Shown here: positions 5,301-41,749 of the stretch, piece after piece
Position numbering within the stretch: the stretch's first letter is position 1
Layout: every line of letters begins with the position of its first letter
Origin: an uncultured Candidatus Saccharibacteria bacterium
GTDB lineage: Bacteria > Patescibacteriota > Minisyncoccia > Phycocordibacterales > UBA2100
DNA: 64,000 nt
Assembly (NCBI GenBank): GCA_964594735.1
Contig: CAZQMS010000005.1
Coordinates: 19,150-83,149, forward strand
Direction: 5' to 3'
Program-made: the position numbers and the translations under genes
Notes under the pieces: generated by a model
Database searches by the model: none
What the model saw: only the letters and a program-made list of their open reading frames with translations
Told to the model about the DNA's origin: nothing

Positions 5301-5316
5301 ATCTCACGGGGTATAA
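5301..5316 (+). promoter_or_regulatory. conserved motif ATCTCACGGGGTATAA (TATAAT 7 nt before the ATG)
   Basis: One of about 7 copies of a 16-nt motif in this window; probable -10 region of a leaderless transcript. Confidence 0.45.
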
Positions 5317-15241: not shown

Positions 15242-15691
15242 ATGGCATGGTACCTCCCAGCCACAGGAGGTCCCATGGTCAGCATGATCAGAGCACGTTC
15301 GCGCGACGAGACGGTCGCCGACGAGCGCATTGTGAAGCGCGGCATCCCCTTCTTCGACACAGCATACCCCGGATGGCGGCGCATTCTCTACTTCTCGCCT
15401 GTCGAGATCGCGCATCCGAATCGGTGTCCGCTATCAATTCTCGAAACGGTGTCGCGCATTGCGCACCAGGAGAATTTCACACTGCGCAACCTGAACGACG
15501 AGCGCATCAAGTCGCTGGTGCGCATGAAGAACACGATTTCGTACAAAAGAGCACTGCAGGCACGGGGCATGTCGCTCGCCGACGGTGTCGCATGCGGCCT
15601 CGCTCGCGCAGACGACGATCCGAAGACGTTCTACGCGACACTGCGCGACCGGTGGAAACTCCACTACAGTCCCGACAACTGGATGTTCTGA
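15242..15691 (+). CDS. hypothetical protein
   Basis: The ORF is trimmed to begin after the pilB stop. Alternative ATG at 15275 with AGGAGG 4 nt upstream. Confidence 0.35.
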   Translation: MAWYLPATGGPMVSMIRARSRDETVADERIVKRGIPFFDTAYPGWRRILYFSPVEIAHPNRCPLSILETVSRIAHQENFTLRNLNDERIKSLVRMKNTISYKRALQARGMSLADGVACGLARADDDPKTFYATLRDRWKLHYSPDNWMF

Positions 15692-15754: not shown

Positions 15755-16219
15755 TTACTGAGAAGCGCGGATGAATTTTCTCGCCGCGAGGTTGATGATG
15801 TAGATGTTGGCCATGGTCGAGAGGAGACCAAGACCCGTCCCGAGTGTGAGAAACATTCCCGAGCCGTACGCCTGGTACGCGACGATGCTCCACGTGAGGA
15901 GTGAGAAGAAAATGTTGTAGGCAAGTACGTACATCACCACAGCTCGCGCGTCGCGGATGGCGTACGTCTTGCTTACGTAGTTGCCCGCGTATCTCCCCAG
16001 AAAATACAGGGCCGGAATCCAGAGCACGTACGTAAACATTTCATACGCGAGGCCGGAGAATTTGAGGACGAATTGCGTGAGCCCGAGAAATGTCAGCGAG
16101 AAGAGCACCATGAGGATGCCGAGCGTGAGCGTGAATGTCGCGCCGATGTACCAGCTTCCCGACTGCTTCTTCGTGAGCATGTTGCGTATCGTAGCAGCGT
16201 CGGCGCGCTTCGCGCCCAC
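15755..16219 (-). CDS. polytopic membrane protein, hypothetical
   Basis: 4-5 hydrophobic helices. Confidence 0.4.
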   Translation of the reverse strand: MGAKRADAATIRNMLTKKQSGSWYIGATFTLTLGILMVLFSLTFLGLTQFVLKFSGLAYEMFTYVLWIPALYFLGRYAGNYVSKTYAIRDARAVVMYVLAYNIFFSLLTWSIVAYQAYGSGMFLTLGTGLGLLSTMANIYIINLAARKFIRASQ

Positions 16220-16536: not shown

Positions 16537-17550
16537 ATGACCGACACTCCCGATACTCCCCAAAAGTCCCCCCGCAGCCTCGACCAGGCACTTCGCCCTG
16601 AGTCGTGGAAGGAATACATTGGCCAAGAGGCCATCAAGGAAAATCTCCGCATCCTCCTCACCGCCGCCAAGAGCCGCAACCATCAGCCCGAGCACGTCCT
16701 CCTCTATGGCCCGCCGGGCCTCGGCAAGACGACGCTCTCACACCTCATGGCCAAAGAGATAGGCGCGAGCCTCAAAAGCACGTCGGGACCCGCTATCGAG
16801 CGCGTGGGCGACCTCGCCTCCATCCTCACCAATCTCTCACCGGGTGACGTCCTCTTTATAGATGAAATTCACCGCCTCAATCGCACGATTGAAGAAGTCC
16901 TCTACCCCGCCATGGAAGCGGGCGTGCTCGATATCGTCATCGGCAAAGGTCCGGCAGCGCGCACGGTGCAGCTCGAGCTGCCTCCATTCACGCTCATCGC
17001 CGCGACGACGCGCATCTCGATGCTCTCCGCGCCGCTTCGCTCGCGCTTCTCAGGCGGCACATTCCGCCTCCAGTACTACACCGATGCGGCGATAGCAGAA
17101 ATCCTCCGCCGCTCGGCAAAAATTCTCGGCATCGAGATAGACGCGGATTCGCTCATGGAAATTGCACGGCGCTCTCGCGCGACGCCGCGCACCGCCAACT
17201 ATCTTTTGAAGCGCGCACGCGACTTCGCGTCGGTAAACGAAGAAACATTACACCTCAAGACCGTGAAGAAAGCGCTCGCGCTGCTCGAGATAGATGAAAT
17301 GGGACTCAACCAAACCGACCGCGACATCCTCACGCTCCTATGCGAGAAGTTCAACGGTGGCCCGGTGGGCCTGAAAACAATTGCAGCCGCGCTTTCCGAA
17401 GAAGAAGCGACGATAGAAGAGGTCAACGAGCCCTACCTCATGCAAACGGGCCTCATCGAGCGGACTCCGCGCGGCCGAACGGTCACGAAGAAGGGCTACG
17501 CACACTTGGGCTTCGACAAATCGGGCTCTTCGCAAGCAAAGCTCATGTAG
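16537..17550 (+). CDS. ruvB: Holliday junction DNA helicase RuvB
   Basis: LLYGPPGLGKTTL Walker A, FIDEIHRL, and a RuvB C-terminal winged-helix domain; the start is trimmed to the ATG at 16537. Confidence 0.9.
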   Translation: MTDTPDTPQKSPRSLDQALRPESWKEYIGQEAIKENLRILLTAAKSRNHQPEHVLLYGPPGLGKTTLSHLMAKEIGASLKSTSGPAIERVGDLASILTNLSPGDVLFIDEIHRLNRTIEEVLYPAMEAGVLDIVIGKGPAARTVQLELPPFTLIAATTRISMLSAPLRSRFSGGTFRLQYYTDAAIAEILRRSAKILGIEIDADSLMEIARRSRATPRTANYLLKRARDFASVNEETLHLKTVKKALALLEIDEMGLNQTDRDILTLLCEKFNGGPVGLKTIAAALSEEEATIEEVNEPYLMQTGLIERTPRGRTVTKKGYAHLGFDKSGSSQAKLM

Positions 17551-17667
17551 TTGCGGCTTCATTTGCCAAGGAGTAGTGTTGCATCGGACAATAGTGTCCG
17601 AGAGGGTTCAAGGACCCGCGCCCCAAGGGGCTAGGAGCCAAGGCTCCGAAACTCAGAGGAGGTTACA

Positions 17668-18240
17668 GTGGCATCAGACTTCCGCGTCAATTCAATTCAC
17701 GAGGATAGAATCAAGAATCTTGGCCAGCAAATGGACTCGCTGCGCGAAGCTTTCTGGACTGCCGCCCGAGAGAAAAACGACGCCGTGGCCGCAGCTCTGT
17801 TGGAGGGCTTGTTGCAGAAGTGCCAAGAGTTCTCTGACGATCCGCTGGTACGTATCTATTGCAGGGGGGACACTGCGAAGAAACTGTTGCTTGAATTCAT
17901 AGAAAAAAGCGGTTACGACCCGATGGTCGTGCCAATCACCGCCCAAAAACTCTGCGACGCCGTCGTGTCATGCTGGATCGAAGTGGCGGGCACCTACGAT
18001 CATGATTTTCACGGCGCAATCGCATGCGCGGGATTGACCGCAAGTGAGGTTGCATTGCTCATGGCGAAGTCCGTCAGGGCGCACGTCGGCAAATACACAC
18101 ACGCTATACGTGAATGGCGGTTCGTCCGCCACTACAAGGGAACGGTACCCGATGCCGTCATACGCGTACTCGCACATTCCATCGTGCGGAAGAGTGACGG
18201 CGCAGAGGTACTCGCCATGTTAAAGGCACACGCGGCATAG
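17668..18240 (+). CDS. hypothetical protein (cassette A downstream of ruvB)
   Basis: 190 aa with no known motif. GTG start with GAGGAGG 5 nt upstream, which is unlike most genes here. Confidence 0.5.
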   Translation: MASDFRVNSIHEDRIKNLGQQMDSLREAFWTAAREKNDAVAAALLEGLLQKCQEFSDDPLVRIYCRGDTAKKLLLEFIEKSGYDPMVVPITAQKLCDAVVSCWIEVAGTYDHDFHGAIACAGLTASEVALLMAKSVRAHVGKYTHAIREWRFVRHYKGTVPDAVIRVLAHSIVRKSDGAEVLAMLKAHAA

Positions 18241-18256
18241 ACTGGTGCGGATGCAA

Positions 18257-18293
18257 CGGCCGGTGGGAGCAATCCCCCCGGCCGTGACTTTTT
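18257..18293 (+). terminator. rho-independent terminator ending cassette A
   Basis: CGGCCGGTGGGA-GCAA-TCCCCCCGGCCG (12 bp with 1 mismatch) followed by TGACTTTTTAT. Confidence 0.65.
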
Positions 18294-18295
18294 AT

Positions 18296-18372
18296 GCGGC
18301 CGCACCGTGACCGACAAGGGCTATAAGCACTTGGGTTTTGAGAAACCAGGGCAACAAAAGATCATCGATTGA
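18296..18372 (+). repeat. decayed copy of the ruvB 3' end (remnant 1)
   Basis: Translates in frame as RTVTDKGYKHLGFEKPGQQKIID*, compared with the RuvB C-terminus RTVTKKGYAHLGFDKSGSSQAKLM*. Confidence 0.65.
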
Positions 18373-18425
18373 CGCGAGCCTCCTGCTTGCGCAGAATGCC
18401 GCGAGTTCATAGAAGGGAGGCTTCC

Positions 18426-19316
18426 ATGGCCGCAACATACGCGCGGGACATGCGACTGATTCAGGCGGCCGTCGAAGCAATCGACAAGGCACAGCTCACG
18501 GAATCCATACGGCATGTACTGGGGAAATTCCGTGTCGAATCGATTCAGCTTCAGCTCCGCAAGTTGCCCGTAATTCACGTGAGCAACGAAGTGGTGTACG
18601 GGAGAGAGCACCCGATCTCTGTCGTGTCGGGAGAAGCGAGCATCTACACGCATAGCTGCACGGTCTTCGCGCCGGGGCTCGCACGGCGCCGTTCGCACGG
18701 CTTCGGACTCAACCTGTCAGTGCTCGAAGTGGTGGTGCATGAAGTCACGCACCGCATCTCGGGAGAACGCGTGGCAAAGGGTACGCATATCGACGGTGGC
18801 GCTCAGTACAAAACCACGCGCTACCACAATGGTCTTCGTGAATCGCTGATCGTGGATGGTATGGAGGCTATCGAAAACAACATCATGCTCAACGAGGGGG
18901 TGACGCAGTATTTTGCACTCGAAGTCATGCGTGAGTACCTGCGTCGCGGCTGGTACATGCAGGTCTCAAAGCCGGAAGTCGGTATGTACTTCGAGCAGGT
19001 TGAGCGCGGCGTCCGCGGCGCGTTTTATCCGGCAGCAGTCACCTACGTGGAGGCTCTCGCGAAACGTCTCGCACAGCCACTTGGATCGCGAGAAAAGGCG
19101 TACCACCGCCTTTTGCGCGCATACTTCCGTGCGGAACCAATCCTGCACGACAAGGAGTGGCGTGAGCTGTTGGTAGCGTCGGGAGTCTACGGCATCCTCA
19201 AGAGGGCACGCGGCGCAAGACACCGCGACCTTGCAGGCTTCACCACCCAGATCGCCAGCGGCATGATTGACCGCGGCGTGTGGGAAAGCATCGAGACCGA
19301 AGAAGTGCCGGTTTGA
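18426..19316 (+). CDS. putative HExxH zinc metallopeptidase (cassette B)
   Basis: VVHEVTHRI (HExxH) followed by IMLNEGVTQYFA, which resembles the gluzincin WLNEG third-ligand motif. GGGAGG lies 5 nt upstream of the ATG. Confidence 0.5.
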   Translation: MAATYARDMRLIQAAVEAIDKAQLTESIRHVLGKFRVESIQLQLRKLPVIHVSNEVVYGREHPISVVSGEASIYTHSCTVFAPGLARRRSHGFGLNLSVLEVVVHEVTHRISGERVAKGTHIDGGAQYKTTRYHNGLRESLIVDGMEAIENNIMLNEGVTQYFALEVMREYLRRGWYMQVSKPEVGMYFEQVERGVRGAFYPAAVTYVEALAKRLAQPLGSREKAYHRLLRAYFRAEPILHDKEWRELLVASGVYGILKRARGARHRDLAGFTTQIASGMIDRGVWESIETEEVPV

Positions 19317-19337
19317 AGCGCGTTCTTTCACCGAAAG

Positions 19338-19375
19338 CGGCCGGCGGGAGCAATCCCACCGGCCGTGACTTTTTA
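19338..19375 (+). terminator. rho-independent terminator ending cassette B
   Basis: CGGCCGGCGGGA-GCAA-TCCCACCGGCCG followed by TGACTTTTTAT; a near-identical copy of the element at 18257. Confidence 0.65.
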
Positions 19376-19376
19376 T

Positions 19377-19450
19377 GCGGCCGCACCGTGACCGACAAAG
19401 GCTACGCCCACCTTGGTATAGAGCACCAGCGGAACAATAGTTTATTTTGA
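19377..19450 (+). repeat. decayed copy of the ruvB 3' end (remnant 2)
   Basis: Translates as RTVTDKGYAHLGIEHQRNNSLF*; the 70 nt 19335-19404 are about 94% identical to 18254-18323. Confidence 0.65.
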
Positions 19451-19645
19451 ACTTAAGAATTCCTTTTAAAAGCTTATAAATTCTACTTTGTTATGGGTCT
19501 TAAAAAAACTCTACTTAAGCCATTATATGAGCTTCTTGAGTTTGCTTCTAACGGGAGCTGGGCGCGGGCGGGGCGAGATGGCGGTGGGGATAAGAGGAGG
19601 GCCCGCGGTGAAGAGGCGCGTACAATAGGTGCACACGCACGGTAG

Positions 19646-19677
19646 CGAAAGAGGTCTCCTTTCGGAGACCTCTTTCG
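19646..19677 (+). other. perfect 14-bp inverted repeat (CGAAAGAGGTCTCC-TTTC-GGAGACCTCTTTCG) in a 600-nt non-coding stretch
   Basis: Seen directly; followed by a U-rich stretch TTCTCGG. Possible sRNA terminator or structured RNA. Confidence 0.4.
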
Positions 19678-20059
19678 TTCTCGGCCATTTCGGATTGATG
19701 GTGGGCAAAGTCCGCCTTGATACGATCTCCACGTACTTCCCCCAACACCTCAATGCTCTGACCGACTGTTCCCGCATTAGTCGCAAACTTGCGCATGGAC
19801 TCATCCGGGGAACTTGCTCCCTCGGGCAGACACGTTTCCGTGGGACCCGGGGAACCGACCGACGCACGGTAAGGCGCATCGATAAGAGAAATGTACATCA
19901 CGAAAAAATGCGCAATTTTAATGAAAAGGACAACTTCGGGGGAATACGAGTGGACAAGTATGTGGATATGGCTGTGCACAAACCCTGCTTTACGCTGGGG
20001 ATAGGCGTGATTCACTGAAACAAGTGAGGGGTAGAGCCCCCAATGGAGGAGGTGCTGCG

Positions 20060-20338
20060 ATGCCAGCGAACGCGTCAGAAGATTTCCACAAGCAGCTCGA
20101 GGGGTACGGGCTGACCACCGCGAGCATTCTCTATCGGATGCCCGACCATCGTGCCCTCCTCCAGACGTACATCTGGCAAGAATACGACCTCTTCCCAAAA
20201 TTCCCGGAGCTGAAGAAGTTCCTCGAGTTCTGGCGGGCGAACCTCGACGGGCCGCTCCACTCGGTGCAAGTCGCGCACACCAAGCTCATCAAACCCGTGG
20301 AGCTCAAGCTCGTCGGCAGCGAATTCCGATTGCACTGA
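20060..20338 (+). CDS. Usg-like family protein (PF06233-like, recalled from memory)
   Basis: LEGYGLTTASILYRMPDHRALLQTYIWQEYDLFPKFPELKKFLEFWRANLDGPLHSV matches my memory of Usg proteins. GGAGGAGG lies 7 nt upstream. Confidence 0.5.
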   Translation: MPANASEDFHKQLEGYGLTTASILYRMPDHRALLQTYIWQEYDLFPKFPELKKFLEFWRANLDGPLHSVQVAHTKLIKPVELKLVGSEFRLH

Positions 20339-20361: not shown

Positions 20362-20388
20362 GCAGCGCCACGTTGGCGCTGCTTTTTT
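20362..20388 (+). terminator. rho-independent terminator of the Usg-like gene
   Basis: GCAGCGCCA-CGT-TGGCGCTGC followed by TTTTTTG. Confidence 0.85.
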
Positions 20389-20418
20389 GCAATCTCTTGC
20401 TATTCCCTACCCGCCCGA

Positions 20419-22191: not shown

Positions 22192-24600
22192 ATGACTGCC
22201 CGAATTTTTAGGCGTACGAGGCGCCTTTTCTCTCATCTCCCCGAGTGGCTACGCCTCGCTGTTGTCGGTCTCGTCGCACTCGGATTCTTCACGCTTGCGA
22301 GCGTCACCGCATGGGCAGCTTTTACCCCTATCCCTTCGATAGACAACTTCGAGAATCGCGCGGTCTCGCAGTCGACCAAAATATTCGACCGCACCGGCAA
22401 CATCGTACTTTTCGACGTTCACGGCAGCATGCGCCGTACGGCCATCCCCCTCGACGACATCTCGCCCAATATCCAGAAAGCGACCATCGCTATCGAAGAC
22501 GCGACATTTTATACGCACTACGGCTTCCGCCCTCTCGCATTTATGCGCGCGGTGTGGGTCAACCTCACCACCGGCGACCTGCTCGGCGGCCAGGGCGGCT
22601 CGACGATTACGCAGCAGGTGGTAAAAAACGCGCTACTCACGCAGGACAAAAAAATAACCCGCAAGATAAAAGAAATCATTCTCGCCATCAGGCTCGAGCG
22701 TGTCTACACCAAAGACCAGATTCTCACGACGTACCTCAACGAAAATCCGTACGGCGGGACAATCTACGGCGTCCAGGAAGCGAGTCAGTATTTCTTTGGC
22801 GTCGACGCGAGCGACGTGACGCTCGCACAATCGGCGTACCTCGCCGCGCTGCCCCAGGCACCCACGCGCTACTCCCCCTATGGCAACAATCGCGACCTCC
22901 TCGAACGCCGCAAGGACCTCGTGCTCGACAGGATGCTCGAGCACCAGTTCATCACCGCGGATGAGCACGAGCAAGCGAAAGCGGAGATTGTGCAGTTTAA
23001 AGACGAGGCCGATGCGGGCATCAAGGCACCACACTTTGTCTTCTACATACGCGAGTACCTCGAGAGCAAGTACGGCGTCGACGCAGTGAATCGTGAGGGG
23101 CTTCGCGCCATCACGACACTCGACTACGACCTGCAGAAAAAAGCAGAGGAAATCGTCGCTCAGTATGCGCCAGGTATGGAGGCCAACTTCAACGCAAGCA
23201 ACCAAGGCATGGTCGCCATCGAGCCCACGTCTGGACAAGTGCTCGCCATGGTGGGCTCGCGCGGCTACTTCGACGACCGCATCGACGGCAAGGTCAACGT
23301 GACCACCTCGTACCAACAGCCGGGCTCGGCGTTCAAGCCATTCGTCTACGCCGCGGCACTCGAAAAAGGTTACACACCCGACACGATTCTCTTCGACCTT
23401 CCAACACAATTCTCGACGAGGTGCCAGCCATACGAAGTCACCAACTCGACACCGCCGTGCTACGCACCGACAAGTTTCGATGGACAGTTTAAAGGTCCGG
23501 TAACGATTCGTCAGGCGCTCGCGATGTCGCTCAACGTGCCAGCGGTGAAAGCCATGTACCTCGTGGGCATGGATGGTGCGCTCAATATGGCTGGGCGCGT
23601 CGGGCTCACGACACTCACCGCTGCGCGCGACTACGGACTCTCGCTCGTTCTCGGAGGTGGCGATGTGACACTGCTAGAGCTCACAAGTGCATACGGCGTC
23701 TTCGCCAACGACGGCGCGCGCAACCCGCACACCGCAATCCTGCGCGTGGAGGACATGAACGGCAACGTGCTTGAGGAATACAAAAAGGAGGAGGCGCGCG
23801 TCGTCGACCAGCAAGTAGCGCGCCAGATAAGCGACATCCTCTCCGACAACGAGGCACGCACACCGGAATTCGGCGCCAATTCCCCGCTCTACTTCCCCGG
23901 CAAAGATGTCGCTGCGAAGACCGGTACGACCAACGATTACTGGGATGTGTGGATTATGGGCTACACCCCGGGCATCGCTGCAGGTGCGTGGGCCGGCAAC
24001 AACGACAACGAGCCGCTCGAAAAGCGTATCGCCGCATTTATCATCGCGCCGATGTGGCACGATTTCATGGAGTACGCGATGGAGAAGTATCCCGCCGGAG
24101 ATTTCGTCGAGCCATCTCCCGACGCGGAGGCAGATTCACTCCACCCAGTGCTACGCGGCCAGTGGAACTCGTCGCCGGGCGAAGGTGTACACGAAATACT
24201 CTACTGGGTGAGTAAGGACAATCCGCGCGGAGGAGGCACTTCTCGCGGTGACGGACAGATGCCGTATTGGGATTTACCCGTACAGGCCTGGGCCACTGGT
24301 CAGTTCCTCGGCGGTGCGACGACACCAGGCCAAGGCAGTGGCTTCCGCATCCTCTCTCCAACACCGGGAAGCTTTACACCACTCTTACAACCGCTTTCCA
24401 TAACCGCGTTCTACCCGTTCCCCCAAAACGTCGTGCAGGTATCGTACTACCTCAACGGCCAGCCTATTGGGGCTTCCAGCCAGCCGCCGTACGCGATTAC
24501 CTTTGTGCCTACCCTCCCGGGCCCTGCCACTCTCCAGGCAGCTGTGCAGACGATTCTCGGCGGCACCGAAGTCACGAGTGTCCCCATCACGATTCAATAG
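22192..24600 (+). CDS. class A penicillin-binding protein (transglycosylase plus transpeptidase)
   Basis: N-terminal TM, GT51 motifs (GGSTITQQVVKN, RKIKE) and the SxxK motif SAFKPFVYAAAL. Confidence 0.85.
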   Translation: MTARIFRRTRRLFSHLPEWLRLAVVGLVALGFFTLASVTAWAAFTPIPSIDNFENRAVSQSTKIFDRTGNIVLFDVHGSMRRTAIPLDDISPNIQKATIAIEDATFYTHYGFRPLAFMRAVWVNLTTGDLLGGQGGSTITQQVVKNALLTQDKKITRKIKEIILAIRLERVYTKDQILTTYLNENPYGGTIYGVQEASQYFFGVDASDVTLAQSAYLAALPQAPTRYSPYGNNRDLLERRKDLVLDRMLEHQFITADEHEQAKAEIVQFKDEADAGIKAPHFVFYIREYLESKYGVDAVNREGLRAITTLDYDLQKKAEEIVAQYAPGMEANFNASNQGMVAIEPTSGQVLAMVGSRGYFDDRIDGKVNVTTSYQQPGSAFKPFVYAAALEKGYTPDTILFDLPTQFSTRCQPYEVTNSTPPCYAPTSFDGQFKGPVTIRQALAMSLNVPAVKAMYLVGMDGALNMAGRVGLTTLTAARDYGLSLVLGGGDVTLLELTSAYGVFANDGARNPHTAILRVEDMNGNVLEEYKKEEARVVDQQVARQISDILSDNEARTPEFGANSPLYFPGKDVAAKTGTTNDYWDVWIMGYTPGIAAGAWAGNNDNEPLEKRIAAFIIAPMWHDFMEYAMEKYPAGDFVEPSPDAEADSLHPVLRGQWNSSPGEGVHEILYWVSKDNPRGGGTSRGDGQMPYWDLPVQAWATGQFLGGATTPGQGSGFRILSPTPGSFTPLLQPLSITAFYPFPQNVVQVSYYLNGQPIGASSQPPYAITFVPTLPGPATLQAAVQTILGGTEVTSVPITIQ

Positions 24601-24607
24601 GAAACAG

Positions 24608-24997
24608 TCAACGTAAAACGGCCGACGACCAACACGAGTGCTTGGATGCAGATTTTAGATGTTTGCTGAAACCACCAAGTTGTCGCGATAATTCCTCACA
24701 ATCTGCTCGAATTTCACCGAGCTGCTCGTCCGTTATCAAATTCTCGCGTCGAGCGATCTCGCACGCTGCCATGGACTCGTTAATGGAGCCCAATGCAATG
24801 GTGACGTACCGATTGAAATCCTTATCAGAGCTCTTTGCTGAGCCCTCGGCAATGTTTAAAGCCACGGACAGGGAGCTTCGTCGCACTTGATCGGTAAGAT
24901 ACTGAAATTCGCGGGGGAATGATCTGGTTACAGCAACGATTTTCGAATGGAAACGAATACCATCCTGGTAGATCTTCACTTCTCGAAACCGAAACAT
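24608..24997 (-). CDS. four-helix-bundle protein (TIGR02436; the so-called 23S rRNA intervening-sequence protein family)
   Basis: FRFREVKIYQ...F.SKIV.VTRSFP...LTDQVRRSSLSVALNIAEGSAK...F.RYVTIALGSINE. Confidence 0.7.
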   Translation of the reverse strand: MFRFREVKIYQDGIRFHSKIVAVTRSFPREFQYLTDQVRRSSLSVALNIAEGSAKSSDKDFNRYVTIALGSINESMAACEIARRENLITDEQLGEIRADCEELSRQLGGFSKHLKSASKHSCWSSAVLR

Positions 24998-25033
24998 ACG
25001 GCTTGTTGAAAGTTGAATGTTTGATGTTGGTAG

Positions 25034-26131
25034 TTATCTATTCAGTGGCATCACGAGGTACGTGAAGCTGCTATCGGAGACGCCGCGGATAACGAGCGGT
25101 CTACCGGGGCCGGAGAATCCGAGCACGACGGAATCTGATTGTATTGTCGCCAGACAATCTGATATGTACCCGATATGGAAGTTGATATCGAGATCGTCCC
25201 CCGCGAGCGCCGCATCAATACTGTCGGACATCTCACCCACATCTGCACTACGTGCCGTGGCAGTGAAAATCTTCTTCTTTGGGTAGATGTGTAGGCCGAC
25301 GTGCATCTCCTGACCAGAGAAGACGCGTGCCTTGCGGAGCATTTCGGCAAGATCATTCTTAAGTACCGTCGCTTCCGAGGTGAACTTCTTGGGGATAATT
25401 TCTTTGTAGTTAGGAAATGTCGCATCGACGACACGAGATACGAACCTTGTTCCACTCCCAATGACCACCAATTGCGCATCATCCGTCGAAAGCGCGACAG
25501 TGTCGTCACTGAGCCTCTCGAGCACATGGACGAGCTCTAGGGCGTGTTTAAGCGGAATGAGAAGCTCTCCCGATGTGCGCGCACCTGTCTCCGAAACCAT
25601 TTTCTCCGCAAGTCGGAATGAATCAGTGGCAACGCACACCATCGAACCATCCTGCATTGAGATGTAGATACTTCCGAGATCGGGTCGAATCATCGACGGC
25701 GAAGCTGCGTATGCGACCGATTGAATACCGTGGATAAGTCTCTCACGCGCGAGTGTAATCTCTTTTTTCCCACTCTCGCTCGAGAGCACTGGAAATTCTT
25801 CATGGGGGACAGCTTTGATAAGGGTCTTTGTCCCTCTTGATTCGATGAGGAGGTTACCATCTTCAGTCGAAAGCGTCACTTTGTCGCCTCCAATAGCGCG
25901 GATTGTTTGGGAGAGGATTGCTGCGGATACTGCTACCGTACCTTTTTCTTCAACATCACCTGCGACAGATATTTCTATCCCCGCCTCAAGATTGGTCGCT
26001 TTTAAATTTATATCCTTTGCTCCCTCGATGAGTACACACGAAAGAATAGGAAGTGACTCTTTTTTTCCTGTAATGCGTTCTGCCATGAGAATCGCATTAA
26101 GAATCTTTTCTTTTGTTGTTGTGAGTTTCAT
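25034..26131 (-). CDS. dnaN: DNA polymerase III beta sliding clamp
   Basis: 365 aa in three-domain clamp layout, located downstream of dnaA. Confidence 0.85.
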   Translation of the reverse strand: MKLTTTKEKILNAILMAERITGKKESLPILSCVLIEGAKDINLKATNLEAGIEISVAGDVEEKGTVAVSAAILSQTIRAIGGDKVTLSTEDGNLLIESRGTKTLIKAVPHEEFPVLSSESGKKEITLARERLIHGIQSVAYAASPSMIRPDLGSIYISMQDGSMVCVATDSFRLAEKMVSETGARTSGELLIPLKHALELVHVLERLSDDTVALSTDDAQLVVIGSGTRFVSRVVDATFPNYKEIIPKKFTSEATVLKNDLAEMLRKARVFSGQEMHVGLHIYPKKKIFTATARSADVGEMSDSIDAALAGDDLDINFHIGYISDCLATIQSDSVVLGFSGPGRPLVIRGVSDSSFTYLVMPLNR

Positions 26132-26442
26132 ATTCTTTTCATTCTTTAAATAACTATTACTACTATTAGTACTGTGTACAGCGGGGATAACCGTAAAAAA
26201 TGGCGGAGTGGAGAGATGAAATAGTGCAACGGAGGGTGTTGAAAACTTCTGCGCGAACTAGGAACAAGGTGTGTGTAAGTGGTGTTGGTGAAGAAACGCT
26301 GAAGTTGTACGCATGTTGTCCCACCCACTGTTCGAGTAGTTGTACAGCGTTCTCCACAGGATATACCACCATGTTGTGCACAACAGTAGAGCCGCCGATT
26401 GCGTGGGAAGCGGCGGGTGTGTGAGGAGAAAATCGCATAGGC
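26132..26442. other. candidate oriC (dnaA-dnaN spacer with an AT-rich DNA-unwinding element and DnaA-box-like sites)
   Basis: A 44-nt AT-rich stretch (26132-26175) in a 60% GC genome; TTCTCCACA (1 mismatch to TTATCCACA) and TGTGCACAA / TGTGTACAG repeats. Confidence 0.45.
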
Positions 26443-27795
26443 CTACGCGTGGATGAGGGTGCGGATGTGGTCGAGTTCTTGCTCAAGTGAGTTGTTGCTC
26501 TTTATCTCCTCTTTGATTTTTTCGCACGAGTGGATGACTGTGGTGTGGTCGCGGCCGCCGAGCTTCTCCCCTATTGAAGGGTATGAGACGCTAAATTCTT
26601 CACGAAGGACGTACATGATGATCTGTCTCGGCTTGACCACCTCCTTTTTGCGCGTCTTTTCGTAGATGCTTTTCTCGGGGACTTCGTAATACTGCGCGAT
26701 GCGGCGCACCACCTCATCTATAGAGACGCCACGATTCGGCTTCACATTGTGTTTGATGAGGGCGCGTACGTCGGCGTGCGATATCGCTTTGCCCTTGAGC
26801 TGCGATTTGCACACAATCATATTGAGAACACCTTCAAGTTCGCGGATGTTGCCGCGCACGTTCTCAGCGATGTACTGGATGATGTCTTCCGGTATGGAAA
26901 AACCGTGCTGCTCTATTTTTGCCTTGATGATGGCGATGCGGCTCTCTACATCGGGCTCCGGTATCTCCGCGATGACACCGGCGGCGAAGCGGCCTTTGAG
27001 GCGCTCCTCAAAGCCCGGGAGGAGCGATGGGTGTTTATCTGACGAGAAGACAATTTGTTTGTTGTTGTCGTGAAGTGCGTTGAAGAGGTGGAAGAGTTCT
27101 TCCTGGGTCTTCTCTGTGTTTGCGATGAACTGGATGTCGTCCATGATGAGGACATCGTACTGACGGTACTGGTCTTTGAAGTTGTTGGCGCGTCCCGCAC
27201 GCACGGCGTTGATGTAATCAATCGCGAAGCGCTCCGATGTGACGTAGAGCACTTTTTTGTTCGCGTGCTGTTTCTTGAAATGATTGCCAACCGCTTGGAT
27301 GAGGTGGGTCTTGCCGTGACCTGTCGAGCCGTAGATGAAAAGCGGATTGTACGTGAGGCCCGGGCGATCTATCACCGCCTTTGCTGCCGCGTGGGCAAGC
27401 TGATTGAAGGGGCCGACGACAAATGTCTCAAATGTGTAGCGTGGGTTGAGGTTGTCGCGCTTGTCTATATAGAGAGACTGGAGGTCGAACGACGCGTTCT
27501 CCTGGGGCTTTTCAGCGCGCGGCGCCCTGCGCTCGGCACTCGGGGCACTGCGATGAACGACGTACTCGACGGTGCGAATAGTGTTGTCGAGGCTACGGAG
27601 TGCCTTGAGGATGAGCTTGTGGTGTTTCTCGAGCAGCCACTCTTTCACAATCTTCGACGGCACGGCCACCTGCACTGTCCCCGACTCGCGGTTTGCGATG
27701 TCAGTATTGCGAAACCAAGTGCGGAAGGAGGCTTGTGATGTTCCTAATTCTATTTGGACCAATGCGTTCTGCCATAGTTCTCGATTGGTCATCAT
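26443..27795 (-). CDS. dnaA: chromosomal replication initiator DnaA
   Basis: GSTGHGKTHL Walker A, AAA+ sensor motifs and a C-terminal DNA-binding domain. The track start is TTG at 27804; the ATG at 27795 is likelier. Confidence 0.9.
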   Translation of the reverse strand: MMTNRELWQNALVQIELGTSQASFRTWFRNTDIANRESGTVQVAVPSKIVKEWLLEKHHKLILKALRSLDNTIRTVEYVVHRSAPSAERRAPRAEKPQENASFDLQSLYIDKRDNLNPRYTFETFVVGPFNQLAHAAAKAVIDRPGLTYNPLFIYGSTGHGKTHLIQAVGNHFKKQHANKKVLYVTSERFAIDYINAVRAGRANNFKDQYRQYDVLIMDDIQFIANTEKTQEELFHLFNALHDNNKQIVFSSDKHPSLLPGFEERLKGRFAAGVIAEIPEPDVESRIAIIKAKIEQHGFSIPEDIIQYIAENVRGNIRELEGVLNMIVCKSQLKGKAISHADVRALIKHNVKPNRGVSIDEVVRRIAQYYEVPEKSIYEKTRKKEVVKPRQIIMYVLREEFSVSYPSIGEKLGGRDHTTVIHSCEKIKEEIKSNNSLEQELDHIRTLIHA

Positions 27796-27962
27796 AGATA
27801 TCAACAGCGAATGAAGCTCACGTATTATACGCGTGCAGCTTTCGCTGGGAAGCGCCGCGGGAGTGTTACGACATGTTCACAACCTGTGTACAACCTGTTG
27901 ATTACTTTTTCGCCCACCATCGCTGTTGCCATGTGCCAGATTTTGCCGTATAGTCCGAAGTC

Positions 27963-28097
27963 ATGAGACGAACCTATCAGCCGAAGAAGCGCAAGCGAGC
28001 GAAAACACATGGTTTCCGCTCCCGCACGACGACTACCAAGGGGCAAAAGGTGCTCCGCAGGCGTCGTCAGAAGGGACGCAAGCGCCTCTCCGCATAG
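27963..28097 (+). CDS. rpmH: 50S ribosomal protein L34
   Basis: [44 protein letters not shown] (44 aa, translated by hand; below the ORF-track size cutoff). TATAGT lies 8 nt upstream. Confidence 0.9.
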
Positions 28098-28099
28098 CG

Positions 28100-28426
28100 A
28101 TGCCCAAAAAGAACCGCCTCAGCGGTGCCGAAATACGGCGGATACGCTCCCCTCGCCGCTCCCACGGCGAACTTTTCTCACTGTCCGTCTCCCCCTCGGA
28201 TGGTGCGGAGGCTAAGTTCGCATGCGTGGTATCCAAGAAGGTTGCGAGTTCGGCCGTGCGGCGCAATACGATAAAGCGCAGGTGCCGCGACATATTTCGC
28301 GGCAGCCTCGTAAGCCTCCCCGCAGGTTCCTACATACTCTATGCCAAGAAGGGTGCCGCCGAGGCATCGTACGCGGCGATGGCCGAGGATCTTGCGAAGC
28401 TCCTGCGGGGGCTGCGTAGCGCATAA
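28100..28426 (+). CDS. rnpA: ribonuclease P protein component
   Basis: MPKKNRLSGAEIRRI...IKRRCRDIFR; starts 3 nt after the rpmH stop. Confidence 0.85.
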   Translation: MPKKNRLSGAEIRRIRSPRRSHGELFSLSVSPSDGAEAKFACVVSKKVASSAVRRNTIKRRCRDIFRGSLVSLPAGSYILYAKKGAAEASYAAMAEDLAKLLRGLRSA

Positions 28427-29899: not shown

Positions 29900-30460
29900 C
29901 TACCATCCGCTTCCACCACCCCCGCTAGAGCCGGCCCCACTTGAACCGGTGCCGGTACTGCCGGGCGCTGTTGCTGGCGCAGCAGGTAGAGAGTTTGCGG
30001 GTGCTTGATTGGTCGCAGCTGGGCGTGTGGGCGTCACGATTTGCACCTTGTTGGCGTTTCGGAACACATTTAGATCCAGTAAATTCGGATTAATCTGGCG
30101 CAGAATGAGCCATATTGAAAGCAGCAGCAAAAGACCGAGAATCACATCGCCGATGACCTGCTTCGCGTGTGACTTCTGGTGGAATGCATCGGTGGTCATG
30201 TACAGGTAGCCTGCAAAGGCGAGCCGGAGTACGCCAAGAATTGCGCCCACCGCAATCATCGCAACGAACACCTTGTTGAAAAAGTCCGCAAGAGACCCAT
30301 TCGTTCCATACAGATCTCCGAGGCGAGTGCCACCGGGAGCGGGGGCGAGCGGTACGAAAGTCTGGGCGGTTGCCATGCTCGCGCTAATGACGAATAACGT
30401 TCCCGCTATTGTAATCGCGAGCAGGAGGTGGGGTATGTACTCGGTTCGTCTCATAATCAT
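29900..30460 (-). CDS. small membrane protein, candidate VirB2/TrbC-like pilin
   Basis: Signal peptide followed by two hydrophobic helices and a Gly/Ser-rich tail; last gene of the secretion cluster. The start is trimmed to the ATG at 30460. Confidence 0.35.
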   Translation of the reverse strand: MIMRRTEYIPHLLLAITIAGTLFVISASMATAQTFVPLAPAPGGTRLGDLYGTNGSLADFFNKVFVAMIAVGAILGVLRLAFAGYLYMTTDAFHQKSHAKQVIGDVILGLLLLLSIWLILRQINPNLLDLNVFRNANKVQIVTPTRPAATNQAPANSLPAAPATAPGSTGTGSSGAGSSGGGGSGW

Positions 30461-31698
30461 CGGTCTAGCGTGAGCATCCACAGTGTTTTGTCTGTCTTGT
30501 TGCTGAAGGCGATGTGCGTGCCGGCGCTGTTGATGCGCGGCTCTTCCACATCGAGCGGCGTGCCGAAGTCTGGCGTGAAAATTTGCTCGGCGGTGTTGGC
30601 AGAGACGTCGATGCGCCACCATGCATCCGCAGTGTGCACCGAGCCATCGTACCAGCCGCGTACAAACGCACCCGTCGGCCGTGTCTGGGGTACTGCACAG
30701 TACAGAATGAGTCGCGAGTCGGGTGCCCACACACATTTTTCCACTACCGTGCGCACGGGTAGCGCTATGTCCGCACTCGCAGCGCTTACGCGCGCAAAGA
30801 GCGCGAGCGAGCCACCAGAGGAGCTGCTGAAAGCTACGGCGCTCGAGTTGGTGCGCGGGAGGAACATGAGGCCAGGGATATTCCCTACGACGCGTTCGAG
30901 TGCGCCGGATGGGAGCACGCGGAACGCGAATCCTGCGACGTCATCCGACGCCTTCTGTACAACGTACCGCGTACCGTCTGGGAGCACGAGTGCTCGCCAG
31001 TCGGAGAGCGCCGACGTGAGGATGCGCTTTTGGCCTGCTGCCTTCCAGTCGGCAGTAATACCGGCGGATCCATCAGACTCACGCACGATGAAGAATATCT
31101 CTCCAGCATCGTCGCGGACTGCAACCGATACCACACCAGTTGGGAGGAATACACCCTCGAGCTTGTTCGGAGTGTCCCCCGCTGCCGGAGACGTGCTCGT
31201 CCCTATACGCGCAGCGAAAGCCGTACTTCCCCCCGCGTCGTCGAGTGCGCGCAGCACGACAGAGCCATCAGAGGCAAAATGTGCCTCGAGAACCTTCGGA
31301 ATGAGTGTATTCGTGAGGCGCTCTATCTTGGTCTCGTTGGGGTCAGCGACGAGGATGTTGCCGGAGGCGCGTTCCGCGAAGTAGAGGCGCGGACTCGAGC
31401 TCGCGAACCCGAGACCAGCAACGGGTGTGCGAGTTATCTGCCAGAGCTGCGGAGCCTCGGAAGACGCCGATGATTCATTCTGAACGATAGACCCGACGAT
31501 GCCACTGACAAGGTTTGAAATTCCGCTCCCGATACCGGCGCCAAAAGTCTCGCTCGCGCCAAATCCACGTGCCGCGTCTTGCGACTCCGTCGTCGAGATT
31601 TGTTGATTGACGAAGATGTACCACCCCGCGAGGCCGCCAAGCGCCGTGACGACGATGCCAGCGACTACGAAGCGGATGAGGGTCATGTTCATTTTCAT
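30457..31698 (-). CDS. membrane-anchored protein with a probable beta-propeller ectodomain
   Basis: N-terminal TM; stop overlaps the next start by 4 nt. Confidence 0.4.
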   Translation of the reverse strand: MKMNMTLIRFVVAGIVVTALGGLAGWYIFVNQQISTTESQDAARGFGASETFGAGIGSGISNLVSGIVGSIVQNESSASSEAPQLWQITRTPVAGLGFASSSPRLYFAERASGNILVADPNETKIERLTNTLIPKVLEAHFASDGSVVLRALDDAGGSTAFAARIGTSTSPAAGDTPNKLEGVFLPTGVVSVAVRDDAGEIFFIVRESDGSAGITADWKAAGQKRILTSALSDWRALVLPDGTRYVVQKASDDVAGFAFRVLPSGALERVVGNIPGLMFLPRTNSSAVAFSSSSGGSLALFARVSAASADIALPVRTVVEKCVWAPDSRLILYCAVPQTRPTGAFVRGWYDGSVHTADAWWRIDVSANTAEQIFTPDFGTPLDVEEPRINSAGTHIAFSNKTDKTLWMLTLDR

Positions 31699-31704
31699 AC
31701 TGAT

Positions 31705-32742
31705 TTATTGCTGTGGTGCGAAAGGATTTGTTCCCTCCACGCCGCCGGCGCGGGAGAATGTGACCTGCCACGCCGCATTGGTGCCGAAAAAGAAGTTGCT
31801 TATATGTGTAACCTCCAGCTCGACGGTAGCGACCCCTGTCGACCCCTGTGAATTGATGGTGATTTGAGACGGTAATTCCTTGTGACTTGCGATGTCCTGC
31901 TGATTTACGCGCCAGGCGTACGAAAGACGCGAGTCATTTTCTGATGTTGCAGGGGCAAAATATGGTATCGCAAGAAACGTCAGCTCCGTCTCCGGCGTAA
32001 ACGCGCTCGCGCCAAACGCCCTGTGGTAGAGGGGGCCGAAGAGCGGGTGATTCTCGTAGAGCTGGATGTGTGTGTCGGGACTCGGTATACGTGTGCTCGC
32101 GCGCGCAGATATGGCACCGTCAGGAGTGCGCGCTTCTACGGAGAATGTGTCGTCGCTGAAGAGCGTCCTGCCGTCGACTACGAGTGTCGAGCGCCCCTTA
32201 CCTGAGAACGAGCCGAGCACGATGTTTCCTTTGCGCCAGGTGTAGATGAGGTCCTTTTCTGCGATTCGCGTCCCATTCTGTACAAACGTGGGGTATGCGA
32301 CAAATGTGATGTTTGCACCCGGAGATGGTAGCGTGCGTCCCCCATAAAAGGCGGGAGTAAACCCGTCGGCTTCCCACAGAAGGTCGAGGGATGCGGGGGT
32401 AATCGTGAGAAAGGCGAGCGCATCCTCATCGCCCGAAATGACCGATGCAGAGACATCGACCGACTCGCCCGCACTTCCGACCTCTATAGAAACGCTCGTG
32501 ACCCCTTCGCCCTCGGTGAGGAGCTCTCCATCGACGCGCCATGAGATAAGACTTTGAGCGAGATCATAGATGGGGCTTTGCAGTGTGAGTCGCACCGTGC
32601 TGTTCGGTACAGGCTGCGCGGGGCTCATCGCGATTGTTACTGCACTTGATGCTCCCGGAATACCCGACTGCGCGCTGACCATCATTGGTACGACGACAGG
32701 CATCGCGAAAATGAACATCAATACTACCGAGACGCGCTTCAT
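31705..32742 (-). CDS. secreted protein, hypothetical
   Basis: Signal peptide MKRVSVVLMFIFAMPVVVPMMVSAQS. Confidence 0.4.
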   Translation of the reverse strand: MKRVSVVLMFIFAMPVVVPMMVSAQSGIPGASSAVTIAMSPAQPVPNSTVRLTLQSPIYDLAQSLISWRVDGELLTEGEGVTSVSIEVGSAGESVDVSASVISGDEDALAFLTITPASLDLLWEADGFTPAFYGGRTLPSPGANITFVAYPTFVQNGTRIAEKDLIYTWRKGNIVLGSFSGKGRSTLVVDGRTLFSDDTFSVEARTPDGAISARASTRIPSPDTHIQLYENHPLFGPLYHRAFGASAFTPETELTFLAIPYFAPATSENDSRLSYAWRVNQQDIASHKELPSQITINSQGSTGVATVELEVTHISNFFFGTNAAWQVTFSRAGGVEGTNPFAPQQ

Positions 32743-34718: not shown

Positions 34719-34801
34719 AGGAATAGTTTACAGGTGACAGTCTACAGTTAACAGTAAAGTATGCATGCGCGTATTGGTTGTTCCTGTCATCTGTAAACTG
34801 T

Positions 34802-35464
34802 TCACTGTGAACTGGGTACTGGCATGGGTTTCCCCTCCTCGCCCGGGTTGAACATCTTGTAGAGAAGCTCTATCGCCTCCTCGGTGCCGAGCTGGACGGT
34901 GCGCACGCCCGTGCGGACCAATCCCTGCTGGACGATGGAAATGCGCTGCTCGAGTTGTGACACCTGTTCTTCAAATGTCCTGTTCTCTGCGGCGGGGTCG
35001 GATTTACCCTTGCCAAATGGCAGGTAGGACGCGGGTCCGGATTTCTTGGTAATAACTGCCGGGTCGTACGGCACGACGACGAAGAAATTTTTCGTCATTA
35101 TGTTGGCCGCCTCGGTGAAACTCTTGATGAACTCGATGTACTCACGAATCTGAATGCGCATGAGGTCGTCGAGTTGCTGCTTGTACTGTGCTTCAAGTGT
35201 CGCGACATACGGGCGGATGTCGAGCATGCGCGACTGGACGAATATCTGTACTGAAAAGTCGAGTGAATTGAGGAAATTTTGGAATTGAACGATGAATGCG
35301 GTCTGCTCGTCTTCGCTCTTGAGCGCGAAATTGATGGACGAGGCGAGGAGCACTGCGCGCAGACCCCCGCTCTTGAGCGACACGACGCCGTCGCGTACCT
35401 CTTGAATCGGCACAAAATCCTGTGTCGATCGAGAGATGGTGCGCTTGTTGGTGGTTTCAGGCAT
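34802..35464 (-). CDS. hypothetical protein of the secretion cluster
   Basis: 220 aa, soluble, no motif. Confidence 0.4.
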   Translation of the reverse strand: MPETTNKRTISRSTQDFVPIQEVRDGVVSLKSGGLRAVLLASSINFALKSEDEQTAFIVQFQNFLNSLDFSVQIFVQSRMLDIRPYVATLEAQYKQQLDDLMRIQIREYIEFIKSFTEAANIMTKNFFVVVPYDPAVITKKSGPASYLPFGKGKSDPAAENRTFEEQVSQLEQRISIVQQGLVRTGVRTVQLGTEEAIELLYKMFNPGEEGKPMPVPSSQ

Positions 35465-35467
35465 GGT

Positions 35468-35983
35468 CTATTGGCGCGGGGCGCTTCTGCGCAGCTGGGT
35501 GACAATGTCTTCGGGTACGCGCAGGCCCCGTACGGGGTCTGAGTCGCTTCTGTCGCGCTCGTCGGTCGTGCCCGCAGCGATGCGTTCGTTGATGTCGAGG
35601 CTCCAGGCAAGCTCGTGGAGCTTGCTGTCGGAGAGTTTGGGCACGTAGACGCTTGCGCTCCCCCGACTCGGCTCTGCCGCCTTTTTAACCTGTGGCTTTT
35701 TCGAGCGCTCGTTGTTCCAGAGGTACAGCTTGGGGTGGAGCATGTAGTAGAAGCTGTTTTCGAGCGCGAGGAGGAACGGGCGGCCGTTGACCTGCATGAA
35801 GGCAAGCGCCGCGGCAAGCCCGAGGACGCCGATGATGAGTGGTGCAGCAGCAAAAAGCGGGAGGATGCGCCACACGACGTATGCAAGACCGAGTCCTCCG
35901 GCGATGAAGACGAATTGCTTAAAGGTGAGAGGCCCCACAATCTTGTCCTCTACCTCGATGAATTGAGGTACTTGGAACTGCAT
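35468..35983 (-). CDS. PrgI-family (VirB3-like) small membrane protein
   Basis: MQFQVPQFIEVEDKIVGPLTFKQFVFIAGGLGLAYVVW is the characteristic PrgI-type N-terminus (from memory), with two TM helices. Confidence 0.55.
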   Translation of the reverse strand: MQFQVPQFIEVEDKIVGPLTFKQFVFIAGGLGLAYVVWRILPLFAAAPLIIGVLGLAAALAFMQVNGRPFLLALENSFYYMLHPKLYLWNNERSKKPQVKKAAEPSRGSASVYVPKLSDSKLHELAWSLDINERIAAGTTDERDRSDSDPVRGLRVPEDIVTQLRRSAPRQ

Positions 35984-36043
35984 GACTCAATTATTATAAC
36001 AGCCCGCACGATGTGTGCGGGCTGTTTAAACGCATATCACTAC

Positions 36044-36628: not shown

Positions 36629-36631
36629 AAT

Positions 36632-41668: not shown

Positions 41669-41681
41669 GCGACGCGAGGAT

Positions 41682-41697
41682 ATCTAACGGGGTATAC
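41682..41697 (+). promoter_or_regulatory. conserved motif ATCTAACGGGGTATAC (plus strand, with no plus-strand gene downstream)
   Basis: Seen directly. Confidence 0.35.
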
Positions 41698-41749
41698 CGC
41701 GCTCAAAGACGCAAAAGTGTAGATATTCCACCGAATTGCGCGGTTTTTT

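Follow-up and report, generated by a model that had tools for sequence, protein, structure and literature searches.

In the genomes that GeneMarkS-2 places in group C, including those of Mycobacterium, Streptomyces, Corynebacterium and Deinococcus, leaderless genes are abundant (PMC6028130, PMC3160421). A Pribnow box placed 6-8 nt from the start codon characterises group C, and Actinobacteria and Deinococcus-Thermus often show this pattern (PMC6028130). Here we describe the translation starts in a 64-kb stretch of contig CAZQMS010000005.1 (the window), and in particular those of three adjacent genes between ruvB and yebC, designated P1, P2 and usg, each of which is preceded by a strong Shine-Dalgarno (SD) site. 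The ribosomes of the candidate phyla radiation (CPR), or Patescibacteria, are unusual and reduced, and to our knowledge almost nothing is known about translation start in these bacteria. A search of the searchable library for CPR, Patescibacteria and Saccharibacteria gave no paper that deals with leaderless starts or the use of SDs. An earlier sequence-only reading of the window had contrasted the SD sites of these genes with -10 boxes close to the starts of most other genes, and had taken the contrast as support for a foreign origin of the islet at 17.55-20.39 kb. According to the energy ranks and box statistics given below, the contrast itself is real and far beyond chance. We consider it probable (roughly 60%) that SD-led translation is a trait of self-contained accessory cassettes in a leaderless, SD-poor genome.

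The RuvB protein of the window matches RuvB from metagenome-assembled genomes at 84-88% identity; these genomes carry the label Candidatus Kaiserbacteria or uncultured Saccharibacteria. The remoter matches are other Patescibacteria. On the basis of these matches, the window is assigned to a Candidatus Kaiserbacteria (Patescibacteria/CPR) chromosome. Start codons were taken first by an unselected longest-open-reading-frame (longest-ORF) rule, which gave 56 genes, and were then partly curated by hand, which gave 59. The SD strength was expressed as the duplex energy with a generic bacterial 16S 3' tail, so that the anti-SD is assumed. For comparison, related loci were used, among which L001-L003, whose RuvB is 84-88% identical to that of the window, are the nearest species representatives, and L084, a close relative, comes from the sample that also gave the window.

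The three SD sites are present exactly where they had first been read. On the plus strand, GAGGAGG (17656-17662) lies 5 nt before the GTG of P1 at 17668, GGGAGG (18415-18420) lies 5 nt before the ATG of P2 at 18426, and GGAGGAGG (20045-20052) lies 7 nt before the ATG of usg at 20060. With energies of -15.9, -15.7 and -13.4 kcal/mol, the SDs of P2, usg and P1, respectively, rank 1-3 of the 56 starts. The chance that the three islet genes take these ranks is 1 in 27,720, a value judged post hoc. The next ranks are held by a doubtful start at 54080 and then by gene 15275 (-11.5 kcal/mol). The 56 starts taken together resemble 3000 random positions, with medians of -3.8 and -3.7 kcal/mol, and with 10.7% and 10.8%, respectively, at or below -8 kcal/mol. 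At the core starts, the SD signal does not rise above background.

Coincidental purine runs, or true starts located elsewhere, were considered as an explanation of such sites. About 4.5% of the random positions reach -10 kcal/mol, and P1 has two competing start calls, as the NCBI record gives a protein of 169 aa starting at the ATG at 17731. However, the top three ranks fall to three adjacent genes with the canonical spacing of 5-7 nt, the SDs are conserved across the P2 homologues, and another 17 cassette genes show the pattern. Chance or an annotation artefact is thus hardly credible.

The core genes show a different signal. Ten genes had been listed as carrying a TAnnnT hexamer 6-9 nt upstream of the start, and all ten boxes are present with those spacings. 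The boxes are TATGAT 7 nt before ruvA (start 3406), TATACT 8 nt before uppP (7436) and 7 nt before the gene at 6810, TACAAT 6 nt before pilB (13527), TAGAAT 8 nt before polA (13080) and 7 nt before Pif1 (59278), TATAGT 8 nt before the 44-codon ORF of rpmH (27963-28097), TATCCT 7 nt before the GTG of purA (47382), TACAAT 6 nt before the gene at 42667, where a TGA precedes the box, and TATTAT 6 nt before the gene at 42619, which had been called the first secretion-cluster gene. The gene names agree with Pfam, except that the gene at 6810, read as DoxX, has no DoxX match at E<1e-4.

Using the longest-ORF rule, TAnnnT is found at a spacing of 5-9 nt in 17 of 56 starts, as against 19 of 765 internal in-frame start codons (Fisher p = 4e-12), and the spacing shows a sharp peak at 6-8 nt. 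Using the curated starts, the box is found in 30 of 59 genes, with a spacing of 6 nt in 16 genes, 7 nt in eight, 8 nt in five and 9 nt in one. ATG is the start codon in 27 of the 30 boxed genes. The three positions 5' of the hexamer are enriched in G/T, and the -35 signal is slight. These features suggest that the box is an extended -10 element (tGgTAnnnT). An extended -10 at 6-8 nt, the absence of an SD and the 27 ATG starts fit the leaderless reading proposed earlier. We infer that the transcription start of the boxed core genes coincides with the start codon or adjoins it, and that their mRNA would be translated without a leader. The remaining core genes abut or overlap the upstream gene, or are leadered without an SD. 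In L001-L003 most of the called genes are likewise of the leaderless type. An automatic scan of these three loci for strong SDs gave no convincing SD-led gene start: all the matches but one are internal in-frame start codons at least 25 codons into the ORF, and the sole exception, at L001 4437, is a G-run that also has a leaderless-type box.

The window resembles group C in the Pribnow-type box 6-8 nt from the start codons of first genes and in the absence of an SD there. At about half of all genes, the boxed share equals or exceeds what has been reported for the operons of group C.

As a separate observation, six copies of the motif (A)TCT[CA]ACGGGGTATAnT lie in the window, against 0.27 expected, at 5305, 21645, 29300, 29402, 41600 (minus strand) and 41686. 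Four of the copies provide the -10 boxes of leaderless-type starts, namely those of gene 5324, ruvC (21664), jag (29422) and gene 41581. The motif may be a shared operator or mark a special promoter class.

Since a leaderless start is possible for a first cistron only, and P1, P2 and usg all follow ruvB on the plus strand, the SDs could reflect position: genes in this place cannot be leaderless and need an SD, and a foreign origin would have no role. In group C, the internal and leadered genes do use ribosome-binding sites (PMC6028130). In the window, however, none of ten tightly coupled internal core genes has an SD above background, and the same holds for about 12 leadered core genes, including ruvB, yebC, dnaA, dnaN and pnp. 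The ruvB gene itself (16537-17550, plus strand; Pfam RuvB_N, AAA_lid_4 and RuvB_C) has a leader of at least ~55 nt and no SD (-3.5 kcal/mol). Among the 16 leadered genes, a strong SD is present in 4/4 accessory genes versus 1/12 core genes (p = 0.003). Moreover, P1 and P2 have promoter-like sites of their own, that of P2 being conserved, and a terminator-like hairpin lies between the units. As the internal and leadered core genes lack SDs, operon position does not explain the contrast, and we regard a position effect alone as very unlikely.

The fourth strong-SD gene lies outside the islet as originally drawn. This accessory gene (15275-15691, plus strand) occupies the slot between pilB and ruvB, and AGGAGGT is located 3 nt before its ATG. 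It has no Pfam match, no homologue was found in L001-L003 or in any other locus, and the search of viral contigs (IMG/VR) gave no relatives. Beside it, also between pilB and ruvB, is a lineage-specific gene on the minus strand (15755-16180), hydrophobic by eye, for which no homologue was found in the related loci.

The contrast recurs outside the window. Seventeen same-strand accessory genes from the pilB-ruvB-yebC-ruvC slots of L081, L082, L084, L089, L090, L092/L093 and L094 have a median SD energy of -9.5 kcal/mol, versus -3.2 kcal/mol for core genes (Mann-Whitney p = 2e-8). In those loci a leaderless-type box precedes tsaE, pilB and yebC; ruvB lacks both the box and an SD. The intergenic regions of the arrays share one design, in which a hairpin with a GCGGCCG(C/G) stem and a T-run is followed by a -35/-10 pair, a leader and an SD. 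The hairpins are near-identical within one array, with three in L092 and two in the window. In L092 (6889-8714), each of the three near-identical 37-nt hairpin units (GCGGCCGCTCC..GGGAGCGGCCGCGATTCTTT) separates one gene of the post-ruvB array from the next, and two of them are followed by the promoter-like sequence TTGCGG, 17 nt, TAGGAT.

The P2 gene (18426-19316, plus strand) encodes 296 residues, and its predicted promoter is located at 18369-18397 (TTGACG, 17 nt, CAGAAT; plus strand). Related promoters are found 5' of the P2-family genes of L082, L084, L089, L090 and L092, and in L081 the -10 part only is seen, as the contig begins there. In the family the -35 is TTGAC(G/T/A), the spacer is 17-18 nt, the -10 is CA(G/C)AAT or CACTAT, and the leader is ~30-40 nt. 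Six members, whose proteins are 26-50% identical, keep the -35, the -10, the leader and the SD. As these signals are kept within Kaiserbacteria down to 26% identity, they appear to be a maintained trait and not a donor relic. In all the Kaiserbacteria-like contigs with enough flank (L082, L084, L090, L092/L093 and L094), a P2-like gene is located within one or two genes of ruvB.

P2 has only two close homologues, and its family comprises 33 cluster representatives among 1.84 billion proteins. It has no Pfam match, and its alignment found no relatives among viral contigs (IMG/VR). An HExxH motif and a downstream Glu (H105, E106, H109 and E157) are invariant in 25-26 sequences. The AlphaFold2 model built from 25 sequences is confident, with a predicted local distance difference test score of 92. 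The best Foldseek match in the PDB is 2ejq, a weak zincin-like match below significance (E = 0.4, probability 0.87), and the profile search against the PDB gave E = 0.59. From the conserved motif, P2 and its relatives, which also include proteins P0125-P0155, may be described as a small uncharacterised family of ~300 aa and as putative metalloproteases of the zincin type.

P1 (17668-18240, plus strand) is an orphan cassette gene of 190 aa. A consensus scan places a promoter-like site at 17563-17592 (TTGCCA, 18 nt, GACAAT; plus strand), from which a leader of ~70 nt is predicted. P1 has no Pfam match and matches only itself among 5.8 billion proteins; it is absent from all the related loci, and no relatives were found in viral contigs (IMG/VR). 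The GC pattern over the three codon positions (GC1/GC2/GC3) is coding-like, and the fit of the synonymous codons is poor (z = -2.1). P1 and P2 show no similarity to each other, which rules them out as tandem duplicates.

The usg gene (20060-20338, plus strand) encodes 92 residues of an alphaproteobacterial type and is followed by a terminator-like hairpin and T-run (20362-20392, plus strand). The match to the Pfam family PF06233 (137 bits, E = 1.8e-40) exceeds the gathering cut-off of 27. The protein shares 72-78% identity with alphaproteobacterial proteins; of the homologues with an organism name, the closest (72-75%) are from Alphaproteobacteria, in which usg genes carry SDs as well. A nucleotide search of plasmids gave 86 matching records, all from alphaproteobacterial genera, which cover only the usg part at 60-80% nucleotide identity; among the matches listed, the feature underneath is mostly usg or unannotated. 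The GC content at third codon positions (GC3) is 0.817 (z = 2.5), above the core range. According to these matches, usg would derive from an alphaproteobacterial lineage, and an outside donor lineage can be named for usg only and for neither P1 nor P2.

In L084, the usg orthologue (2286-2555) has GGAGAG at the place of the SD, versus GGAGGAGG in the window, which indicates that the SD changes in place. The two usg proteins are 77% identical, and the flanking YebC, VIT1 and RuvC are 92%, 94% and 89% identical, respectively. Pairwise identities place the two usg proteins no nearer to one another than to homologues from elsewhere. These values suggest that usg changes fast, or is replaced in place, at the ruvB-yebC site.

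Between P2 and usg lies a conserved structured RNA of ~275 nt (19631-19904, plus strand), whose -10 box TACAAT (19621-19626, plus strand) aligns with TACTAT or TACAAT in relatives. Copies were found in L003 (11048-11320), L001 (11860-12137), L002 (9354-9650), L084 (1838-2121) and L090 (5260-5535), with nhmmer E values of 1e-43 to 1e-76. The fold has 57 pairs, of which 31 show compensatory changes, and the G-U pairs favour the plus strand. In the alignment 90% of the cells are paired, versus 34-46% with the partners slid, and the observed values are not reached in any of 500 shuffles. Both in the window and in L001-L003 and L084, the RNA is located 3' of ruvB and directly 5' of yebC or usg. Because it is present in these relatives, the RNA is judged to be core sequence and not a part of the insertion or foreign DNA. 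Rfam gave only two tRNAs over the whole window (gathering score) and nothing in the islet, also when 19400-20100 was searched at E<=1. The RNA is a candidate for a new RNA family in Kaiserbacteria. Upstream of it is an AT-rich filler of ~110 nt (19443-19550), AT-rich by eye in a genome of 57% GC. L084 lacks this filler and has a minus-strand gene in its place. The filler also contains many short palindromes (CTTAAG, GAATTC, TTTAAA and AAGCTT).

The slot between ruvB and yebC differs among the relatives. It is empty in L003, where the RNA follows ruvB by ~60 nt and yebC comes next. In L001 it holds two genes, by eye helix-turn-helix-protein-like and Doc-type-toxin-like. In L084 the order is ruvB, a P2-like gene (26% identity, HERTH motif), a hairpin, the minus-strand gene, the RNA, usg and yebC. 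In L081 and L082 a P2 homologue of 50% identity follows ruvB directly. In L092/L093, ruvB is followed by a P2-like gene, two genes of 233 and 252 aa in that order, usg and yebC, the 233-aa and 252-aa genes of L092 being paralogues (26% identity); L094 and L090 are further variants. P1, P2 and usg are absent from L001-L003. Judging from these gene orders, the ruvB-yebC interval is a variable accessory slot in the clade, in which P2 relatives and usg are recurrent residents.

These data bear on the foreign origin proposed for the islet, according to which one recently acquired island spans 17.55-20.39 kb and the SDs are the ribosome-binding sites of the donor, still retained. The alphaproteobacterial type of usg, whose relatives there also have SDs, the atypical synonymous codons of the orphan P1, the absence of the region from L001-L003 and the duplicated ruvB tails (described below), which flank the cassettes like att sites, are in its favour. 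The stretch nevertheless includes the conserved core RNA gene, and P2 relatives or usg reside in the same slot of L081/L082, L084, L090, L092/L093 and L094. The promoter, leader and SD of P2 persist in the clade at 26-50% protein identity, and the SD of usg differs between the window and L084 despite flanking core proteins that are 89-94% identical. A check of codon usage and GC3 against the core, which had been suggested, gave a divided result: the GC content is ~57% all along the window, islet included, and the codon usage of P2 is typical, whereas usg deviates in GC3 and P1 in codons. No integrase was found in the window; phage records gave no nucleotide match to the region, and the plasmid matches concern usg only. 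A single recent import is rather unlikely in our view; import with donor signals fits usg and perhaps P1, but not P2. The leaderless reading and the setting apart of the SD-led genes as non-core stand; the single foreign islet does not. As far as these comparisons go, the islet is a composite of two cassettes with ruvB tails, the AT-rich filler, the core RNA and usg.

The ruvB tails give an indication of how P1 and P2 may have arrived. The last 80 nt of ruvB (17471-17550, from GCGGCCG to the stop codon) recur twice downstream. The first cassette-end hairpin (18257-18295, plus strand; repeat family D1) consists of CGGCCGGTGGG-AGCAAT-CCCCCCGGCCG and then TGACTTTTTAT, and is followed by a displaced ruvB 3' end (18296-18372, plus strand) that encodes GRTVTDKGYKHLGFEKPGQQKIID and a stop codon. 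The second hairpin with TGACTTTTTAT (19338-19376, plus strand) is followed by a second displaced end (19377-19442, plus strand) that encodes GRTVTDKGYAHLGIEHQRNNS. Thus the order is ruvB with its tail, P1, hairpin, tail copy 1, P2, hairpin and tail copy 2, and direct repeats of the ruvB 3' end stand at the unit boundaries with the ruvB ORF restored. The hairpin, TGACTTTTTAT and the tail copy together form a direct repeat of 86 nt (18257-18342 and 19338-19423) with 87% identity. The tail copies begin at GCGGCCGC and encode GRTVTDKGY.HLG. Counting the true tail, ruvB tails stand at 17471, 18296 and 19377, and the two junctions are identical over 32 nt.

The two repeat copies have two differences in the first 61 nt and nine in the last 25 nt; they are near-identical through ...GACCGACAA and divergent beyond. 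This is the pattern expected if each unit was inserted at one point of the ruvB tail and displaced the earlier tail. Tail copy 1 nearly equals the true ruvB tail of L082, which is located directly 5' of the P2 homologue. In L091 (JGI metagenome contig Ga0209211_10002139), an intact ruvB is followed by an unrelated 220-aa gene and then by a displaced ruvB tail (1150-1210). The latter begins at the same codon (GRTVTEKGYTH...) and is an independent tail duplication with different cargo; toxin-antitoxin-like ORFs, by eye, come after it. The unitig L083 starts and ends within the repeat, which could reflect an excised circular form, but a chromosomal tandem repeat would look alike. A pattern search for the ruvB tail in viral contigs (IMG/VR) gave no match. 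The hairpin type occurs twice in the 64 kb, each time at a cassette end, and a generic genome-wide terminator was rejected on this ground.

Taken together, the Kaiserbacteria chromosome would have two modes of translation start, a leaderless-type core and SD-led accessory cassettes. The slots around ruvB (pilB-ruvB and ruvB-yebC) would hold changeable, same-strand, self-contained expression units, each combining one ORF with a -35/-10 promoter, a ~25-80 nt leader and a strong SD. A GC-rich hairpin and T-run of array-specific sequence would close most of the units, and P1, P2 and usg would be three such units. With its own promoter, leader and SD, a unit should be expressible wherever it lands. 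The cassettes may come from distant sources, as usg from an alphaproteobacterial lineage, or may circulate within the clade, as the P2 family. A single point in the ruvB 3' end (GCGGCCG...GTGAC) would be the site at which P1 and P2 entered by recombination, and each insertion would have rebuilt the RuvB C-terminus and moved the earlier tail further 3'. Both the use of the SDs by the ribosome and the recombination mechanism are deduced here from sequence.

Several observations weigh against this explanation. The accessory gene 15755-16180, the first gene of the L001 pair and several minus-strand accessory genes of L093/L094 have leaderless-type boxes and are not SD-led. Some cassette SDs are weak, as those of the 222-aa gene of L092 (-5.0 kcal/mol) and the P2-like gene of L094 (-6.4 kcal/mol). 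The 17 cassette genes were picked after the pattern had been seen. The strict longest-ORF rule yields 30% boxed starts, and the value of 51% needs the hand-curated starts; the term leaderless is applied according to the position of the motif only. The 16S 3' end, which carries the anti-SD, was sought in the window and all the related loci and is not encoded there. The sample comprises the 64-kb window and ~100 kb of related loci. With respect to the insertion mechanism, the cassettes of L092-L094 are not separated by ruvB-tail copies, and Pfam found no recombinase or integrase domain in the ~58 window proteins.

The window carries genes typical of a chromosome core. Pfam identified rpsT, a Mur ligase, spoU, uppP, polA, tsaE, pilB, ruvA, ruvB, yebC and ruvC, a class A penicillin-binding protein, dnaN, dnaA, yidC and jag, and a type IV secretion-like cluster, ksgA, uvrD, purA, an ABC transporter, pnp, pif1 and rpsO. 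The cumulative GC skew has its minimum near 25 kb, within 24600-28100. This minimum is adjoined by dnaN (25034-26131, minus strand), dnaA (26443-27795, minus strand) and the divergent rpmH-rnpA-yidC-jag group, and the GC content falls to 49-51%. The replication origin region is probably located at ~24600-28100. On the minus strand, 29900-42619 is a long same-strand cluster with type IV secretion pilin-like, VirB4/TraG-like ATPase and PrgI-like genes and several large genes without a Pfam match. Most of its internal genes have 4-nt overlaps or gaps of 3-6 nt, and none of them has an SD.

Several known systems resemble the array after ruvB. The minimal mobile elements of Neisseria are slots that act as recombination hot spots between conserved flanking genes. 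The ruvB-yebC slot is similar in that it has a different cargo in each relative, or is empty, which homologous recombination of the flanks would explain. The tail duplications at a fixed nucleotide and the common layout of the cassettes, however, are outside that model.

Integron cassette arrays, and the integrase-less attC clusters, form a second comparison. The units here likewise contain one gene in one orientation, end in an array-specific hairpin and are anchored at a fixed site. In contrast to integrons, no IntI or other tyrosine recombinase was found by Pfam in the window, and the cassettes carry their own promoters. The hairpins have 27-28 nt with GC stems of 10-11 bp and a T-run, and by inspection they have neither R/L boxes nor GTTRRRY. 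With neither the recombinase nor the attC structure in view, the resemblance to integrons seems to be superficial.

Site-specific integrative elements may target gene 3' ends, the gene being restored upon insertion. Integrase-less remnants of such elements can stay behind in tandem as cis-mobilizable elements, as described for the streptococcal integrative and conjugative elements at fda. The array after ruvB shares with them the direct repeats of the target 3' end that flank the units, the tandem arrangement, the regenerated ORF and the lack of an integrase in the units. The differences are that the units here are 0.8-1.1 kb with one gene each, that the arrays of L092-L094 have no tail repeats, and that a cognate integrase or parent element was found neither in the window nor in the phage and plasmid collections and viral contigs. 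Compared with this class, the locus has the direct repeats, and no recombinase was found in the window. A further step would be to regard the ruvB-yebC slot of Kaiserbacteria as an undescribed cassette capture site. One-gene units, equipped with a promoter and an SD of their own and with an array-specific hairpin on a GCGGCCG stem, would be inserted there site-specifically at the fixed ruvB 3' point by a recombinase encoded elsewhere. We think this unlikely. If it were true, a reduced CPR genome would contain an integron-like store of accessory genes, and SD-led initiation would keep the expression of the cassettes apart from the leaderless core.

Apart from the capture mechanism, the analysis uncovered a ruvB hot spot with duplicated gene tails, a new putative metalloprotease family and an unclassified structured RNA. 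If the pattern is genome-wide, this Kaiserbacteria lineage would combine about half of its genes leaderless, a core without SDs and strong SDs only in accessory cassettes. Gene callers that look for SDs will set wrong starts in such genomes, as the two calls for P1 already illustrate, and SD strength could be a cheap marker for accessory cassettes.

Finally, the contrast can be set against group C. There, the genes outside the leaderless class, whether leadered or internal, have SD-type sites, whereas here the core is without SDs and the strong SDs are confined to accessory cassettes. Kaiserbacteria and CPR are not among the lineages named for group C (PMC6028130). With these differences, the contrast between SD-led cassettes and leaderless-type core genes is best read as a variant of the known leaderless-rich genome type.

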